DNA of 64,000 nt from a bacterium. GTDB taxonomy: Bacteria; Patescibacteriota; Patescibacteriia; SBBB01. The notes under the pieces are model-generated. The model worked only from the letters and a program-made list of their open reading frames with translations, ran no database searches and was not told where the DNA came from. Position numbers and translations under genes: made by a program. Location of the stretch: assembly GCA_005239895.1 (NCBI GenBank), contig SBBB01000025.1:98170-162169 (forward strand), given 5' to 3'. Shown here piece after piece: positions 5,433-36,117 of this stretch. The number at the start of each line of letters is the position of its first letter. Position 1 is the stretch's first letter.

Positions 5433-5927
5433 ATGTCAATAGGAAAAATTTTTACTACCCACAAAAGAATTTACTACGATTATAATATTTTAGAAACTTT
5501 AAACGCCGGGATAGTATTAACAGGCCCGGAAGTTAAATCCGTCAAAAACGGACAGTGTAAACTTGACGGCTCTTATGCTATTTTAAAAATGACAAACTTA
5601 AAAAATAAATATAACACGGAACTTTTTCTTCTCAATGCTTATATTTCTCTTTATAAACCAGCTGGAGAATCAAAAAATTATGACCCCCAAAGAAGCCGCA
5701 AGTTATTATTAAATAAAAAGGAAATTAAAAATTTAAGCAATAAATTAATAAATAAACGCTTGACATTAATACCAATTAAGATGTATAATATGCATAATCG
5801 TGTCAAGGTTGAAATCGCCGTGTGTCAAATGAAAAAAAAGATTGACAAACGGCAATTAATCAAAAAACGAGAAATAAACCGAAAAATTCAAACTAATCTC
5901 CTGCAATCTCACAAGATTCGGGGATGA
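5433..5927 (+). CDS. smpB: SsrA-binding protein SmpB
   Basis: YYDYNILETLNAGIVLTGPEVKSVKNG matches the SmpB consensus, and tmRNA sits immediately downstream. Confidence 0.9.
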   Translation: MSIGKIFTTHKRIYYDYNILETLNAGIVLTGPEVKSVKNGQCKLDGSYAILKMTNLKNKYNTELFLLNAYISLYKPAGESKNYDPQRSRKLLLNKKEIKNLSNKLINKRLTLIPIKMYNMHNRVKVEIAVCQMKKKIDKRQLIKKREINRKIQTNLLQSHKIRG

Positions 5928-6335
5928 TCGGTATTGATAGTAAGTTTAATAGTAAGATTTGCAAGTTATGCTAAGCTCTTTAATGCATATAAAAATTTTA
6001 GGAGCAATCAATAAATGCAAAATCATTTATTAGCAAGGTTAGGTTGGCTTTAGATAACATCTTTAGCTCTCCCAGTTTTGCGCCTGTGGTAGCCTAACAA
6101 GACCACCACCGTCTATCTTTTTTTTCCTAAAAGAAAGAATAGATGTTATATCTTAGGATTATTCTATGATCATTGATTATTAGATCATAAAATAATGTTA
6201 CAATAATCAATAATTCTGGACGTTTCTTGTTCGAGTTCAGAATTTATTAAGGGTTCACCCAAAAAAATAAGATAAACTTGTAGACAGTCTAACTATTACT
6301 TATTAGACGCGGGTTCAATTCCCGCCATCTCCACC
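5920..6335 (+). ncRNA. ssrA: tmRNA (ssrA)
   Basis: The 5' end GGGGATGATCGGTATTGA resembles the tmRNA acceptor/D-like start. The 3' end GACGCGGGTTCAATTCCCGCCATCTCCACC is a tRNA-like T-arm plus acceptor that pairs with the 5' GGGGATG. Adjacent to smpB. A possible tag ORF (gca aaa tca...gta gcc taa) is uncertain. Confidence 0.75.
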
Positions 6336-15724: not shown

Positions 15725-15799
15725 TGGAGCCAATGGCCGGGATTGAACCGGCGACCTACTCCTTACCATGGAGTTGCTCTGCCACTGAGCTACATTGGC
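15725..15799 (-). tRNA. tRNA-Thr (anticodon GGT), CCA encoded
   Basis: Reverse complement GCCAATGTAGCTCAGTGGCAGAGCAACTCCATGGTAAGGAGTAGG..GGTTCAATCCCGGCCATTGGCTCCA. Cloverleaf with anticodon loop ATGGTAA. Confidence 0.85.
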
Positions 15800-15874: not shown

Positions 15875-15899
15875 TACTTGGAAGTCCGACTTCCAAGTA
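15875..15899. repeat. REP-like hairpin TACTTGGAAGTCCGACTTCCAAGTA
   Basis: Perfect 10-bp arms with a 5-nt loop, the same family as 33065-33099 and 33520-33544. A GTAG motif is present on the minus strand. Confidence 0.55.
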
Positions 15900-16259
15900 A
15901 CTTCCAAAGTTCGTATATAACCATTGACCCAGCTGTAGATTTTACTTGATATTTATAGCTAAACAAACAAGCCGTAACAATCCTATCTAGAACAGATAAA
16001 ATTAATTTTTAAATCTACGGCGGGGTTGACACGCTAATTGACCTTATGGTACAATAAATAAATCATACCATAGATAATAGGCGCAGCAGTATTTAACAAT
16101 ACTGCCTTATAAGTCCTGTTGAGGTACAAATCTTATAATATTGAAGAAATTCACTACTATCTGTGGTATTCATTTATATTTGTTAGTCTAATAACCCTTA
16201 GGTCGATAATAGCTTAAAACAAATATAAATTACTACAGATTTTTTTATTTTCATTATTT

Positions 16260-21948: not shown

Positions 21949-22117
21949 AATTTTGCTTCTTTAATAACTACGCAAAATTAAGATGACGATGAAGATGAAG
22001 AAGCTAGATATTAGATGATATATTGCAAAACAAAATTTTCCCTCATCTTCACCCTCATCCTTTAAAATACTAATTACTTACACTAATTATAAAAAATAAT
22101 AATTCTTAAAAAAAATC

Positions 22118-22167
22118 AATGTTTGGGAGTTGAACTCCCAAACATTGATTACTCCCAAACATTGATT
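22118..22167. repeat. Hairpin-B variant CAATGTTTGGGAGTTGAACTCCCAAACATTG plus a partial duplication ACTCCCAAACATTGATT
   Basis: Outer stem conserved. The inner stem GGGAG/CTCCC co-varies relative to GGTGG/CCGCC in other copies. Confidence 0.5.
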
Positions 22168-25860: not shown

Positions 25861-25891
25861 TAATGTTTGGAGATCGGATCTCCAAACATTA
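25861..25891. repeat. Hairpin-B variant TAATGTTTGGAGATCGGATCTCCAAACATTA (plus a partial copy TAATGTTTG at 25846)
   Basis: Conserved outer stem; inner stem GGAGATC/GATCTCC co-varies. Confidence 0.5.
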
Positions 25892-30873: not shown

Positions 30874-31824
30874 TTAAGAGCAAGACCGAGAAACTCCGTC
30901 TGCTAATCCTAGACATGTATTCATATTTTTATCAGAAAATTTTAAAGTCGAAATTTCTGGACTAGCCCGATGATTTAATACAGTTAAACCAGTATCAATT
31001 CGTATCTGATCTGGATATTTATAAGTTGTACTGTGTAGTTCATGACGCAAAACTTCTAAAGATAAATCGTTGTTATCACTATCAGTAATAGGAACAATAA
31101 GGAAGGGATGATCAAATGTTAAACGATTACCACCAAAACTACGCTCACTAAAAGCAATACCAATCGCAACCCTTATATTCTTCTGGGCAACTTCTTTTGC
31201 AAAATGAGACCTAGATATAATAAAACCCTGCGGTAATTGTTCAGTATTATTAAAACGACCTGTAGCATCATAATAAGCAACAAAGGCTCTATGAAAACCT
31301 TCTGGTCTTTGCATAGATAAATCCACTAAAGAATCTTTTTGCCAATCTATATGACCTAAATATTTAGTATTACAAATCTCGGCTAATTTTTTTGCCCATT
31401 CAATGGCGTAATAATCTGGAGGAAGAGATATATCAATTTTATCTTTATTTTTATTAATATAAACTGTGGCGCAACCACACTCTGCGTGACTATACACGCC
31501 TTTAATGTTTTTTCCTTTTAAAGCTTCTACCACTTGCTCTTGATGCAAAATACCAGATCCACCAATTCTAATACCACCACCAGATATACCTTCGTCAATA
31601 CAACGAACACAATTATCATTTTCTCTAAACATTGAATCTGTATTTATATTAGTATCTTCAATATATTTTTTAAAACCTTTTTCCCACAAAGACTTAAACT
31701 TATTTTTTTGTTCTTTCCAATATTCTTCAATATTAAAATGTTCTTCAGGCTCAGATAATTTATGCATATTTTTTATGTTTACAAATAATAATTTAAAAAC
31801 AATCAAAAAATAATACACCCACAC
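30874..31824 (-). CDS. Hypothetical Cys/His-containing protein (CxxC...HAECGC), function unknown
   Basis: 316-aa ORF with no recognisable family. The first 19 aa are possibly a spurious extension (internal MHKLSEPEE). Confidence 0.5.
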   Translation of the reverse strand: MWVYYFLIVFKLLFVNIKNMHKLSEPEEHFNIEEYWKEQKNKFKSLWEKGFKKYIEDTNINTDSMFRENDNCVRCIDEGISGGGIRIGGSGILHQEQVVEALKGKNIKGVYSHAECGCATVYINKNKDKIDISLPPDYYAIEWAKKLAEICNTKYLGHIDWQKDSLVDLSMQRPEGFHRAFVAYYDATGRFNNTEQLPQGFIISRSHFAKEVAQKNIRVAIGIAFSERSFGGNRLTFDHPFLIVPITDSDNNDLSLEVLRHELHSTTYKYPDQIRIDTGLTVLNHRASPEISTLKFSDKNMNTCLGLADGVSRSCS

Positions 31825-32532: not shown

Positions 32533-32928
32533 TCACCCAAACGAACAATCAAGATCACGAAAGTTAATCAATATTCCTTCTGGTAACTTGGTTTTTAGCT
32601 CTTTTATCTTGGTTGCTAATCCATCCGAACACTGATTGTCGCCAATGTTTCGAGAAAGATTATAAACATTGGCTGTGCCCCAATAAACACGCTCCTGATA
32701 AATAGCCTTTTGGCCATAAGTGTTTATAACCACAAACCGAAGCATGTGTCCAAAATATAACTCAGGACCTGTGCTCCCAATTTGATTGCTATTGTTTCTT
32801 ACGACCCAGTATGACTCTGCCTCTACAGATTTGCAGCTTGACTCTTTCGCAATCTCTACAAGTTCTTCCATGGTCTCAACCTCGTACGGAAAAAACTGTA
32901 AAATTAAACGTTTAATAAACTCTAACAT
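32533..32928 (-). CDS. Hypothetical protein (131 aa from the Met with SD)
   Basis: SD AAAGGAGG 6 nt upstream of the internal ATG (MLEFIKR...). The ORF-track start at 32967 has no SD. Local GC is elevated. Confidence 0.5.
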   Translation of the reverse strand: MLEFIKRLILQFFPYEVETMEELVEIAKESSCKSVEAESYWVVRNNSNQIGSTGPELYFGHMLRFVVINTYGQKAIYQERVYWGTANVYNLSRNIGDNQCSDGLATKIKELKTKLPEGILINFRDLDCSFG

Positions 32929-33064
32929 GGTGGCCTCCTTTCGTGCGTCGGTTCTACTTAGAGCCATTGCCTAAGCTCTCTATAAATATAACATATTATT
33001 TAATTTTAACAAATTTTGTTGTTTTTCAAACAATTGCATTTTAAGTATATATAGAATAAACTAT

Positions 33065-33099
33065 GAAGCTACTTGGAAGTTTCGCTTCCAAGTAGCTTC
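33065..33099. repeat. REP-like hairpin GAAGCTACTTGGAAG-TTTCG-CTTCCAAGTAGCTTC overlapping the RayT stop codon
   Basis: Perfect 15-bp arms; contains GTAG; sits immediately 3' of the transposase gene. Confidence 0.6.
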
Positions 33100-33767
33100 T
33101 AATCGACTTCTAAAGCTTTTTTTCTAGACTGTGTGTCCTGCCAAGATTCTATAGCAAAGTCTAGATATATTTTTGGGTTTTTAAATTGATCTAATATAAT
33201 TTTTGTATCACATAAACCTTTCTCGTTTTTAATATATTCTTCTAAGCTAGATTTACTTAAACTAAGAATTTTATTTCCGGATTTATCTCGATTGTTCATA
33301 TTTATATAAGCGCTTAAATGAATCAGGTATCGATTATCAGATATATGTTTTGATTGAAAATTCCCCTGAAATAACACACCATTTCTTTTATATTTTTCAT
33401 TGAAATATTTAGTATAACCACCAATCCGTTGCATAAATTTTTCAATTCCTTTTTCTACAACAGGGGTGATAAGAAAATGAAAATGGTTTGGATTTATACA
33501 AAAAGCTATAATTGAAACCAACTTGGAAGTTTCGCTTCCAAGTTTTTCTTTGTCTTTTTTAAAAGAAAATTCATAAATACTCCCAATGGGTTCTAATCTA
33601 TTAAAATCTTTTATACTTTTTAACAAACGATCTAAATCAAATTTATCAAGAATTATTTTTCTTTTATCAACACCACGATTGTATATGTGATAATATTCTC
33701 CAATAATAAATTCATGTTTTCTAGTACTCATAAATAAATAATAACATATTTGGTTAATTAGTAACAA
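33099..33767 (-). CDS. IS200/IS605-like HUH Y1 transposase of the REP-associated (RayT-like) type
   Basis: YHIYNRGVDKRKIIL, HUH motif NHFHFLITP, and GVLFQGNFQSKHISDNRYLIHLSAYINMN (matching the G.LWQGR.KS...YL..RYIELNP pattern of RayT/TnpA-REP). The real start is probably the second Met (MSTRKHEF). Confidence 0.65.
   Translation of the reverse strand: MLLINQICYYLFMSTRKHEFIIGEYYHIYNRGVDKRKIILDKFDLDRLLKSIKDFNRLEPIGSIYEFSFKKDKEKLGSETSKLVSIIAFCINPNHFHFLITPVVEKGIEKFMQRIGGYTKYFNEKYKRNGVLFQGNFQSKHISDNRYLIHLSAYINMNNRDKSGNKILSLSKSSLEEYIKNEKGLCDTKIILDQFKNPKIYLDFAIESWQDTQSRKKALEVD
33520..33544. repeat. REP-like hairpin AACTTGGAAGTTTCGCTTCCAAGTT located inside the RayT coding sequence
   Basis: Encodes LGSETSKL in frame; same core as the 33065 and 15875 copies. 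Confidence 0.5.
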
Positions 33768-33813
33768 CCACTTAGGAGCAAGGCACCTAAGTTAGTAGGA
33801 AGTAACTCTCAGT

Positions 33814-34698
33814 TTACAATTTATACTCCCCTATTAAGCCTTGCGGCCTATAAAGCATTAATAAAATTAAAATAACTCCATATACTACTTGCCTCATTTG
33901 AGCGGCTATGTCTGGTGGAAAACCAACAAAACGCAAAATTTCAGGCAATAATATTAAAAACAATGCTCCCAAAACTGCGCCACGCAAATTAGCTAGTCCT
34001 CCTAAAATAATAATAGCTAGAATAAATATGGATTCGTGTATAGTAAAACTAGTGGGGTCAATAAATGTAATATAAGAAGCGAAAAGCGAACCAGCGATGG
34101 ATGCCATAACAGCAGCCACAATAAAAATCATTAATTTAAAATATAAAACATTGTAACCAAAGACCTCTATGGCCTTTTCATCTTCTCTAATAGCTTTCAA
34201 AACCCTACCAAACGAAGAATTAATTATAAAATATGACAAATAATAAATTAAAATTAAAAACGCAAAAGTAAGAATTAAAAATGCGAAATTATTCGAAATT
34301 AAAAATTGGAAATTAAAAATTTTTATTTCCGGTCTAGCAATGCCTGGTATACCCAAAGGCCCTCTCGTAACACTTTGCCAATTTAATAAAATCGCAAAAA
34401 TAATAGTATTAAAACCCAAAGTGCCCAAAGCATAATAATCGCCTTTAAATTTTGATAATACTAAACCAATCAACAAACTAATAACAGCGGTTATAATCAT
34501 GCCCAATATAATTGAAACAAAAAATCCCAATTTAAATTGAGTTAATAAAATAGCGGTAGTATAAGCTCCAATACCATAAAAAGCAGCATGAGTTACAGAT
34601 AACAATCCAGTATAACCTACAACTAAATTTAAGCTAACCACAAGCATGGCGTAAATAGCGAACAAAATTGAGAGATGAACTAAGTATTCCATAAACAA
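33814..34698 (-). CDS. livM: Branched-chain amino acid ABC transporter permease LivM
   Basis: Polytopic permease with the LivM-type pattern GYTGLLSVTHAAFYGIGAYT. Confidence 0.8.
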   Translation of the reverse strand: MFMEYLVHLSILFAIYAMLVVSLNLVVGYTGLLSVTHAAFYGIGAYTTAILLTQFKLGFFVSIILGMIITAVISLLIGLVLSKFKGDYYALGTLGFNTIIFAILLNWQSVTRGPLGIPGIARPEIKIFNFQFLISNNFAFLILTFAFLILIYYLSYFIINSSFGRVLKAIREDEKAIEVFGYNVLYFKLMIFIVAAVMASIAGSLFASYITFIDPTSFTIHESIFILAIIILGGLANLRGAVLGALFLILLPEILRFVGFPPDIAAQMRQVVYGVILILLMLYRPQGLIGEYKL

Positions 34699-34842: not shown

Positions 34843-35205
34843 TTACGATCTACATTTTTCTACTATAGAACCAAAAATCTTCATCAGCTCAGTAACTTCC
34901 TGAATCAACTCATCTTTCTCTCTATGTTGATCTAACTTAGGCTCACTTAAAACCAACCAATACCTACTTTCTTTAGCTTCTTTCCTAGATATTTTTATTC
35001 TCATAATAAAATCTTTTTTACTTAATGATTCTTCGACTTCAATATAATTAGCCCCCACTGATCCAGCCGATCTAACCAATTGCTTACCAATTTCAATATT
35101 AGATATAGTTTTGGATAAATTATTTACATAAACATTAGCTCTCTTAGCAAATTTAAGAGTTCTGTCCCCTAAGTCATATTGTTTTGTATTTTGAATTTTG
35201 ATCAT
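34843..35205 (-). CDS. Four-helix-bundle protein of the 23S rRNA intervening-sequence protein family
   Basis: RSAGSVGANYIEVEES...SRKEAKESRYWL matches the TIGR02436/PF05635 signature (GS..SI..NIAEG...E..YWL). Inserted between livH and livM. Confidence 0.65.
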   Translation of the reverse strand: MIKIQNTKQYDLGDRTLKFAKRANVYVNNLSKTISNIEIGKQLVRSAGSVGANYIEVEESLSKKDFIMRIKISRKEAKESRYWLVLSEPKLDQHREKDELIQEVTELMKIFGSIVEKCRS

Positions 35206-35210
35206 TTGAA

Positions 35211-35255
35211 TTTGTTTAGTGTTTAAAATTTAGTATTTAGTGTTTTATTTTCTAA
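35211..35255. repeat. (GTTTAGT)n array, reverse complement of the 34701-34744 array; overlaps the livH stop
   Basis: TTTGTTTAGTGTTTAAAATTTAGTATTTAGTGTTTT is the reverse complement of AAAACACTAAATACTAAATTTTAAACACTAAACAAA. Confidence 0.6.
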
Positions 35256-36117
35256 TGATTCCGGTCGGTCTGAATATCAAAAATAGTATTAATAATCCAA
35301 AAGCAATGGCATCTTTCCATTCTCCGGATATTTTCCAAATACCAAAATTTTCTACAAAACCTAAAATAAACGCGCCCAGCACACCACCAAAAATACTCCC
35401 AATTCCACCAACAATAGAAGCAATAACACCCTTAAGCAGCAATCCTAATCCCATAGTTGGTTCAATACCAGTATCAAAACCAACTAAAATACCAGTTAAT
35501 CCAGCAATAGCTGAACCTATAAAAAACACCACACTGATTATCTTGTTAGTATTAATGCCAACTATTTTGGCTACTTCTTCATCGTCAGTCACAGCTCTGA
35601 CAGCTTTACCAAATTTAGTTTTATAAAGAAACAAAATCAGTCCGCATGCAACTGCAATAGCAGATATTAAAATAATCAGTTGGGTTTGAGTTATTAAACC
35701 ACCGAAAATATTAAAAATTTTTGAAGTGTCAATGTTAAATGAAAGCGTTTGAAATTGACTTGTAAATAAAATAGCAATTATGGCTTGAATGGCTGTAAAA
35801 GTTCCCAATGAAGCTACTAATAAAACCATACTGGACGCTTTTCTTTTTCTAAGCGGTAAATAAATAATTTTATCTAAAGCATAACCAAATAAACCAGTAA
35901 TTATAATACCTAAAACAACAGCTAGATATAAATTTAAACCCAAGGTTTTAGTAAAATAAAAAACTGAATAGCCAGCTATAGTTGCCATTACTCCGTGCGC
36001 TAGGTTAAAAAATTTAGTAACTCCGTAAATTAAATTAAAACCCAGAGAAATTAAAGCATAAACTGCTCCGGCAATAAGACTATTTAAAACCAATTGAGAA
36101 AAAATAGACATAGACAA
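35245..36117 (-). CDS. livH: Branched-chain amino acid ABC transporter permease LivH
   Basis: LivH-like polytopic permease (LNSLIAGAVYALISLGFNLIYG...). Confidence 0.85.
   Translation of the reverse strand: MSMSIFSQLVLNSLIAGAVYALISLGFNLIYGVTKFFNLAHGVMATIAGYSVFYFTKTLGLNLYLAVVLGIIITGLFGYALDKIIYLPLRKRKASSMVLLVASLGTFTAIQAIIAILFTSQFQTLSFNIDTSKIFNIFGGLITQTQLIILISAIAVACGLILFLYKTKFGKAVRAVTDDEEVAKIVGINTNKIISVVFFIGSAIAGLTGILVGFDTGIEPTMGLGLLLKGVIASIVGGIGSIFGGVLGAFILGFVENFGIWKISGEWKDAIAFGLLILFLIFRPTGIIRK

Follow-up and report, generated by a model that had tools for sequence, protein, structure and literature searches.

Among domesticated transposases that coexist with short repeats of their own, the best studied are the REP-associated tyrosine transposases (RAYTs), which are paired with repetitive extragenic palindromic (REP) sequences and for which the copying of the repeats and their uniformity are still open questions. 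RAYT genes always lie between two inverted REPs, are single-copy and co-evolve with their REPs, which possess a GT(A/G)G head and usually occur in more than 100 copies per genome (PMC2817692, PMC5581495, PMC8266576). RayT cleaves at CT with GTAG as guide, and the group-3 REP of Stenotrophomonas maltophilia is a 23-nt unit in which a perfect 8-bp stem is capped by a 3-nt loop (PMC8266576). REPs located in frame within genes have also been reported, for instance from Opitutus terrae and Rickettsia conorii, where they occur in genes for replication and repair, with uvrA and uvrB as hosts (Di Nocera 2013, PMC3733652); in-frame intragenic palindromes are already known and not new in kind. The present analysis concerns a 64,000-nt stretch of contig SBBB01000025.1 (GenBank assembly GCA_005239895.1) from a member of the Patescibacteria, the whole of which is referred to as the window. 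It has one gene for a Y1/HUH protein, which is accompanied by short palindromes around and inside its coding sequence. Gene and palindromes are read here, with a probability of roughly 0.7, as a REPtron-like unit, that is, a Y1/HUH enzyme of the RayT/IS200-TnpA fold with a cognate perfect palindrome of ~10 bp and a loop of 3-5 nt.

The mechanical open reading frame (ORF) of the gene occupies 33099-33767 of the minus strand, codes for 222 aa and reaches back to a TTG at 33767. As its homologues open with MRKH or MSTRKH, the true start is almost certainly the ATG at 33731, and residue numbers below are those of the resulting 210-aa protein, except for one NCBIfam alignment span. The initial annotation of this DNA had recognised Y1/HUH signatures in the ORF and these were borne out, with the Pfam family Y1_Tnp (PF01797) matched at 35.2 bits against a cut-off of 23 over the HUH-to-Tyr core. 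The protein has YYHIYNRG near its N-terminus, HFH at residues 83-85 (33477-33485) and SAYINMNN containing Tyr142 (33306-33308), the putative catalytic tyrosine. H83, H85 and Y142 are invariant across the 106 homologues that make up the protein alignment and profile. In an AlphaFold (AF2) model built from the same alignment (pLDDT 85.9, pTM 0.84), Y135 and Y142 are both held on a helix of residues 133-145, and the protein possesses a helical C-terminal extension of ~60 residues. Comparison of the model with solved structures using Foldseek gave as top match 4ER8, the Escherichia coli RayT with a REP hairpin (E = 1.8e-5, 151 columns), followed by the TnpA proteins of IS608 and ISDra2.

At E ≤ 0.001 the protein has 6053 homologues, the best 120 of which are 57-100% identical and include a 100% identical entry, while those that are named come almost entirely from Patescibacteria (candidate phyla radiation, CPR). 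The gene had been thought unusual in a genome of this kind, which these numbers contradict. Part of the homologues are already annotated by JGI as 'REP element-mobilizing transposase RayT' on the basis of COGs, and distant members (L170 and L192; L and P numbers are our handles for loci and proteins) show the classical YIHLNP...YPWSSY motif of COG1943-type proteins, indicating the family to be a branch of the COG1943 superfamily. A phage vector for the gene was considered and is unsupported, as the viral collection contains no relative of the protein.

The palindromes at the gene are listed in Table 1. The perfect hairpin with 15-bp arms that had been noted over the stop codon was confirmed, overlapping the TAG (33099-33101) by one base. 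It consists of a 23-nt core (33071-33093) with a locus-specific stem extension of 6 bp on each side, and as single-stranded DNA it folds with -16.8 kcal/mol (z = -9). The GTAG pointed out in this hairpin is indeed present, but in the stop-codon copy only; it falls in the locus-specific extension and is not conserved in the family. Recurrence of the core, in frame inside the gene and again near tRNA-Thr, was likewise found as described, with a correction to its size, as the core common to both gene copies is 9+5+9 (or 10+3+10 with the closing pair) and not 10+5+10. In the copy inside the gene, at a position termed site 1, the 23-nt core (33521-33543) lies within a 10-bp stem, codes for KLGSETSKLV (residues 63-72) and folds with -10.9 kcal/mol (z = -5.6). 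It lies in a protein loop that precedes the beta-strand leading to the HUH motif, and residues 64-66 are the sole segment of the model with pLDDT < 50, which indicates that the internal hairpin sits in a tolerated loop, a possibility that had been raised earlier.

The unit upstream of the gene folds with -7.4 kcal/mol (z = -2.3), and it still folds, if weakly, because two changes at arm positions are compensated on the opposite arm. The window protein belongs to a sub-clade (with P0002-P0005) in which the palindrome of a second internal position, site 2, is lost while the site-1 and stop-codon copies are retained. With site 2 gone and the upstream copy diverged, the unit in the window appears to be partly decayed. 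The copy away from the gene is intergenic, 76 nt from tRNA-Thr (15725-15799), and part of its right arm is repeated in direct orientation behind it, at 15900-15910 (AACTTCCAAAGT).

Table 1. Coordinates of the Y1/HUH gene and of palindromes in the 64-kb window
Feature	Coordinates	Strand	Description
Y1/HUH (RayT-like) gene	33099..33731	-	210 aa; start ATG 33731
Downstream (stop-codon) palindrome	33065..33099		GAAGCTACTTGGAAG-TTTCG-CTTCCAAGTAGCTTC, 15-bp perfect arms
Site-1 palindrome inside ORF	33520..33544		AACTTGGAAG-N5-CTTCCAAGTT, in frame, translated
Site-2 equivalent, palindrome lost	33258..33293	-	residues 147-158, NRDKSGNKILSL
Diverged upstream unit	33770..33792		ACTTAGGTGC-CTT-GCTCCTAAGT on minus strand, 39 nt 5' of ATG
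Dispersed intergenic copy	15875..15910		15875-15899 = TACTTGGAAGT-CCG-ACTTCCAAGTA, same arms, different loop
Palindrome of a related sub-family (tentative)	22114..22166		17-bp perfect, inner arm GTTTGGGAGT, intergenic
Palindrome of a related sub-family (tentative)	25861..25891		14-bp perfect, inner arm GTTTGGAGAT, loop CGG, intergenic

Relatives of the locus were taken from two sets. For the GTDB set, species-representative genomes were scanned with the exact arm pattern, giving at least 118 stretches whose loci are chosen by one arm pattern, while the metagenome set comprises 80 loci picked by protein similarity alone, independent of the arm pattern. Up to four hairpins are found in these relatives, located ~30-55 nt 5' of the start, at site 1 before the HUH strand, at site 2 after the helix of the catalytic Tyr, and at or just past the stop, with both internal copies translated in frame as parts of surface loops. 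Locus L002, for example, has four copies of ACTTGGAGGT-N3-ACCTCCAAGT with identical arms at -32, +182, +443 and +633 from the start, and L004 has copies at -48, +182 and +443, the spacing between site 1 and site 2 being 261 nt in both. Among the matches listed, ~20 Y1 genes from species-representative genomes share the four positions. In the metagenome set, 48 of the 80 loci possess at least two gene-associated hairpins with common arms, 29 of these having both the upstream and the downstream copy and 31 having a site-1 copy. The upstream position (-24 to -61) is the commonest in related loci, and most of these loci have a copy downstream, between +632 and +740 counted from the start.

Many of the closer homologues (~57-75% identity) have the second in-frame palindrome at site 2 (LGSPTTKLSKSS), and the palindrome-coded peptide LG-x-x-T-x-KL occurs twice in many of them, at ~63-72 and ~150-158. 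These twin peptides co-vary in each protein, with GGPTSKL found twice in P0087, GSKASKL twice in P0053 and GSRSTKL twice in P0074, and the site-1 and site-2 peptides share at least six consecutive residues in 30 of 106 proteins as against 2% of mismatched pairs. The site-1 unit always lies in a variable linker just 5' of the conserved LVxIVAYCLNPNHFH strand. Its peptides are unrelated between lineages while its position and palindromic symmetry are retained, suggesting a constraint on the nucleic acid and not on the peptide. Judging from this distribution across homologues, the internal copy is a positionally conserved, ancestral trait of the family and not a one-off self-insertion. It had been proposed that the transposase may be targeting its own gene, and this gives way to a copy that occupies one of two positionally conserved translated sites.

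In-frame doublets of units were also seen, examples being the 52-nt palindrome that two units form head to head at site 1 in one Y1 gene of L159 (10170-10221) and further doublets at site 1 of L186 and L148. Tandem units in two frames are present inside ORFs, in a GyrA-like gene (L084 3992-4039) and in that of MnmA (L065 996-1059). These doublets and tandems resemble the arrangements known as REPINs (REP doublets forming hairpins) or BIMEs (bacterial interspersed mosaic elements), but lie within coding sequence. The orientation of the 3-nt loop, first hinted by L002 to be a mark of inverted flanking copies, was dropped from consideration as other loci show every combination, and no rule applies at the four gene positions (L002, L004, L006, L020, L028, L042, L094).

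The arms of the hairpins change with the protein that accompanies them. Homologues of 37-55% identity have wholly different arms (AGATAGAGGT, TTTCGGACGT, TGACGAAGGT, TTCCTAAAGT, CTAAGTCCCT and others) at unchanged positions, and copies within each locus match each other. The two paralogues of L144, which are 51% identical, have arms ACTTGGAAAC and ATTCCAGACAT respectively, while in L159 paralogues of 65% identity use TTCCGAAGGT and CCAAAGGC and a pair of 93% identity has one arm type. Over 53 loci, arm distance correlates with protein distance (Mantel test, Spearman r = 0.58, reached by 0 of 2000 permutations), a correlation that is partly expected from the common descent of linked sequences, and the mean number of arm mismatches climbs with protein distance from 1.2 to 6 of 8. 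These observations support the view that the hairpins are cognate elements of the Y1 enzyme.

Over the loci taken together, 138 of 179 gene-associated units are perfect. Units at different positions of one gene possess an identical internal mismatch in L094, L155, L176 and L150, which indicates that whole units are copied between positions and that each palindrome is not perfected separately. In L006 the upstream and site-2 units share the arm variant GGGTGC and the site-1 and downstream units share GGAAGC, while in L094 loop and arms flip independently. In 30% of copies, compared with 3.3% of controls, the stem continues for 3 bp or more into locus-specific sequence, and in 13%, compared with ~0.5%, for 5 bp or more; this growth (L006-L123; 33065-33099 in the window) suggests inverted duplication of the flanks at the hairpin. 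A 'third arm', that is, a direct repeat of one arm beside the hairpin, was found on the right in 23 and on the left in 19 cases among 589 hairpins, with control means of 4.6 and 3.8 respectively, examples being 15900-15910 and 22151-22166 in the window and L125, L131, L133, L146, L161 and others. Third arms may be scars of replication slippage or template switching, or else half-sites used in recognition. Quasipalindrome correction, or template-switch mutagenesis at hairpins, would fit the perfect stems, the simultaneous changes on both arms, the independent loop flips, the stem growth and the third arms, but alone it cannot account for arms common to separate copies or for paralogue-specific arm types.

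The stretches obtained in the exact-pattern scan are nearly all from metagenome-assembled genomes of Patescibacteria, with several genomes matched on three or four contigs. Among the matches listed, 117 of 153 are located away from any Y1 gene, and 47% of these 117 are not inside ORFs as against 13.6% expected (3.5-fold, p = 3e-18), the remaining 53% being inside ORFs of median length 405 aa, with a frame use of 25:5:32 (p = 7.5e-5) that is almost wholly confined to two frames. Extragenic placement, for which the initial annotation had proposed a test, applies to about half of the dispersed copies, with non-coding DNA over-represented. The common readings of the intragenic units are LGSxxSK and LEAxLPS, with TWKxxFQV being rare.

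The contexts of the host genes resemble UvrB, GyrA, DnaE, ArgRS, Asp/AsnRS, MnmA, TsaD, TsaE and GlmS, with UvrB and MnmA checked against solved structures and the others identified from sequence motifs. In UvrB (the protein scores 818 bits) the copy is a clean in-frame insertion of 13 residues relative to 2FDC, and MnmA has ~15 extra residues relative to its solved structure where its two units sit. The loop of UvrB is unoccupied in 58 of the 106 close relatives with the motif matched, including one at 82% identity, and in other relatives it is occupied by different palindrome families, e.g., EVRLRGTLKSNF = GAAGTTCGACTT...AAGTCGAACTTC, which indicates that units are gained and lost over the time in which species diverge. 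In the metagenome flanks, 10 copies of a locus's own arm type were counted in 380 kb, or 0.26 per 10 kb (~1 per 38 kb); near the gene there are 2-4 copies per ~1.1 kb, an enrichment of about a hundred-fold over the flanks. The 64-kb window has 1 to 3 copies.

Units were also observed in the same loop of orthologous proteins, namely the ArgRS-like L014 3404 and L052 6097, which are read in different frames, the TsaE-like L016 and L045, the TsaD-like L026 and L107 and the Asp/AsnRS-like L062 and L066. These are either old inherited insertions or recurrent landing sites, with the UvrB data favouring recurrent insertion. A few matches fall in records labelled Verrucomicrobiia or Bdellovibrionales (L013, L060, L082), of which L060 has a Y1 gene at 44% identity; the contigs may be mis-binned CPR sequences or may point to a wider host range.

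If the gene and its hairpins do form a REPtron-like unit, the enzyme would act on single-stranded DNA, binding the hairpin in its folded form and cutting and rejoining the strand next to it, by analogy with RayT (4ER8, PMC8266576). Through this activity entire units would now and then be copied, both into new sites and from one existing site to another, in a form of concerted evolution, and such copying would yield three features that were seen, namely the dispersed population, the shared mismatches and the exchange of arms at all positions upon a change of specificity. With preferential action in cis, copies would gather at the gene that encodes the enzyme, and under purifying selection only those insertions in tolerated loops or non-coding DNA, and in two reading frames, would survive. 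Fold-back or template-switch events might in turn be responsible for perfect stems, independent loop flips, extension of stems into the flanks and third arms. The flanking copies could plausibly have a secondary role as read-through barrier or terminator, as is the case in IS200 and many REPs; such a role would be insufficient alone, as it leaves the paralogue pairing and the intragenic copies unexplained.

Several observations weigh against the REPtron-like reading. A search of the protein with the curated RayT profile, the NCBIfam equivalog REP_Tyr_transpos (NF047646), gave 26.6 bits and missed the cut-off of 80, with an alignment limited to residues 80-158 (numbering of the 222-aa ORF). With HMMER, the single protein found nothing useful among solved structures (a lone spurious match at 0.35) and the 106-sequence family profile had no match among PDB sequences at E ≤ 1, and kinship with RayT consequently rests on the fold and Pfam. 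RayT needs its GT(A/G)G guide for cleavage, and the hairpins here are, unlike REPs, without this head and perfectly symmetric. Of 45 upstream copies none, and of 36 downstream copies 2, have GTAG or GTGG within 12 nt of the hairpin, and a search of 151 dispersed copies yielded no conserved asymmetric flank in the form of a head, guide or target motif, the sole flank bias being a weak C/T...G/A preference which merely lengthens the stem. The copy number of the hairpins is low. Binding and cutting of the hairpin by the protein would follow from their association and from the RayT analogy, and as cutting within the ORF would put the gene at risk, the copies located there may be bound but left uncut. 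L124 and L135, which are 70% identical to the window protein, have an intact ORF and lack any perfect hairpin of 8 bp or more around the gene, which implies that the hairpins are dispensable for persistence of the gene. The conservation of position could come from repeated insertion into the only loops that tolerate it, without function, and the part of the Mantel correlation attributable to common descent likewise counts on this side, as does the choice of the GTDB loci by a single arm pattern.

A bolder proposal, which is regarded as doubtful, is that the hairpins are working parts of a self-contained replicator. The copies in the ORF and its flanks would be protected master 'seed' templates that accompany the gene whenever it is transferred or inherited and are rewritten in situ by the enzyme as specificity drifts, and the same activity would write cassettes of 7-9 residues into loops of essential proteins across Patescibacteria. 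If this were true, it would be a RayT-type system with enzyme and repeat physically interleaved and a natural form of in-frame peptide insertion.

An autonomous IS200-like element is an improbable alternative. The flanking hairpins would then be its left and right ends, the whole gene of ~700 nt would be mobile as a circle of single-stranded DNA, and hairpins inside the gene or on their own would be by-products. Close flanking of the gene by hairpins in 29 of the 48 informative loci would suit such an element, as would gene neighbourhoods that are unrelated between genomes, without synteny, the presence in L159 of two copies of 93% identity within 9 kb, and a fold match to IS608 and ISDra2 TnpA nearly as good as that to RayT. 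However, the gene is single-copy in 104 of 106 Y1-containing loci (0.96 Mb in total) with no identical copies, its protein clusters are present on few contigs, and the IS200 models of NCBIfam gave no match to the protein at E ≤ 1. Both ends are one and the same symmetric palindrome and not the distinct, imperfect left-end and right-end hairpins with guide tetranucleotides of IS200/IS605, solo hairpins are dispersed without the gene, and the viral collection again has nothing to offer.

The hairpins could also be expression signals, acting upstream as insulator or terminator, downstream as terminator or mRNA stabiliser and internally as mRNA structure, with their likeness due to local duplication; this is held to be quite unlikely. 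The stop-codon hairpin does match a terminator-like pattern with a T-rich tail (minus strand), the site-1 copy scores as a terminator pattern on both strands, the upstream copy directly precedes the ribosome-binding region in many loci, and roles of this kind are known for REPs and IS200 hairpins. Unexplained, however, are the paralogue-specific arms in one genome and the occurrence of the same arms tens of kb off inside unrelated ORFs. The palindromes are perfect Watson-Crick palindromes on both strands, with many stems far longer than a terminator requires, and mismatched units show no excess of sense-strand G.T over A.C (14 vs 23), which argues against selection on a hairpin in the transcript RNA.

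There is very little likelihood that the palindromes are double-stranded operators for a dimeric autoregulator, be it the Y1 protein or another, with the hairpin potential incidental. Perfect two-fold symmetry around a variable 3-nt centre is typical of dimeric operators, several sites are clustered at one gene, and the half-sites change jointly on both arms. The fold family to which the protein belongs binds folded single-stranded hairpins, though (4ER8, 2VJV), the growth of stems into their flanks, with 30% against 3.3% in controls, points to fold-back or template switching, loops flip independently of the arms, and the in-frame copies in housekeeping genes have no obvious operator role there. 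Chance or artefact, in the form of low-complexity AT-rich palindromes or misassembly, would find some encouragement in the GC content of the window (32.7%) and its many AT-rich inverted repeats but can be dismissed, as the shared-core pattern ACTTGGAAG-N5-CTTCCAAGT with up to 3 mismatches has 3 matches in the window against 0.03 expected (no shuffled window reached 3), perfect stems of at least 10 bp number nine against ~0.7 in shuffles, the same layout recurs in over 60 independent assemblies made by different projects, and the reading frames are uninterrupted.

Two further palindromes in the window (Table 1) have AATGTTTGG(G)AG in common. That at 22114 has its whole 16-nt right arm directly repeated at 22151-22166. 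Their arms GTTTGGGAGT and GTTTGGAGAT resemble the Y1-locus arm types ACTTGGGAGT and ACTTGGAGGT of other genomes, ACTTGGGAGT, which GTTTGGGAGT resembles, being used by the Y1 loci L022 and L138. No cognate Y1 gene for these palindromes is present in the window, and they may represent a second, related family with its cognate gene, if any, outside it.

The Y1 gene lies downstream of two BPD_transp_2 permease genes (33814-34698, 35245-36117). Alone between both is a gene on the minus strand for a 120-aa protein of the 23S_rRNA_IVP/four-helix-bundle family (34843-35205; Pfam 48.5 bits), placed as if inserted into the permease operon and not flanked by hairpins of the Y1 family. The ORFs 3' of the Y1 gene, both on the minus strand and coding for 316 aa (30874-31824) and 144 aa (32533-32967), have no Pfam match at E ≤ 0.01. 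A tmRNA was called by ARAGORN at 5920-6335, with a long tag peptide of 26 residues (AKSFISKVRLALDNIFSSPSFAPVVA).

As a compact case, with up to four copies in ~800 bp of which two are under ORF constraint, the Y1 family bears on enzyme-repeat co-evolution. There are many natural variants with arms replaced at all positions together, and as arm and protein variation are paired, they provide a ready comparative data set for recognition rules. With this family, the range of RayT-like systems would come to include Patescibacteria, a group with genomes that are usually called streamlined. Essential genes in these bacteria (UvrB, GyrA, DnaE, aminoacyl-tRNA synthetases) bear translated palindromic insertions, which matter for annotation, for phylogenomic alignments and for the reading of 'lineage-specific insertions' in Patescibacteria. 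In the literature searched, no Patescibacteria-wide RayT-like family with cognate palindromes and no in-frame palindromes at conserved positions within a RAYT ORF were found; most subscription journals were not covered, making this an absence of evidence only, with novelty unproven. The family would nonetheless be relevant to those working on REP/RAYT, HUH enzymes and CPR genome evolution, as a natural experiment on enzyme-repeat co-evolution.

Like the Rickettsia palindromic elements (RPEs) and intragenic REPs, the units are short palindromes translated as extra loop residues in conserved proteins. As with intragenic REPs, replication and repair hosts are prominent, here UvrB, GyrA and DnaE, and dimers and tandems are common. 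They are shorter than RPE-1 (~21-27 nt for a single unit) and, unlike RPEs, are tied to an identifiable cognate Y1 gene which bears them itself, with frame use heavily skewed to two of three frames. With the TnpA proteins of IS200/IS605 elements such as IS608 and ISDra2, the Y1 protein shares fold and catalytic motifs and its gene has hairpins at both ends, so that a single-strand DNA chemistry is to be expected by analogy; a gene that is not multicopy and the lone dispersed hairpins set it apart.

The likeness to a REPtron extends further. Both have a Y1/HUH enzyme with HUH and a Tyr on a C-terminal helix, mostly in one copy per locus, and a gene tightly flanked by its own palindromes, perfect at the stop and diverged upstream in the window, of which the downstream one coincides with the stop or adjoins it. 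Both show co-evolution of palindrome and protein, with several paralogue/palindrome pairs that may coexist in one genome, and both have solo and paired palindromes that are dispersed. The hairpin geometry of ~10 bp + 3 nt is near that of the group-3 REP of S. maltophilia (8 bp + 3 nt). The differences are tens of copies per genome instead of hundreds, about half of the dispersed copies being intragenic, two extra copies in frame at conserved positions within the enzyme's own ORF, the ~60-residue C-terminal helical extension with failure of the NCBIfam equivalog, and a host range in Patescibacteria as opposed to Proteobacteria. The original proposal of a RayT with cognate REPs can thus be kept for a Y1/HUH enzyme with cognate hairpins and given up for the curated RayT model and for classical REPs. 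Owing to the missing head, the low copy number and the missed equivalog, the system is not filed as RayT proper, but by analogy it very probably works like RayT.

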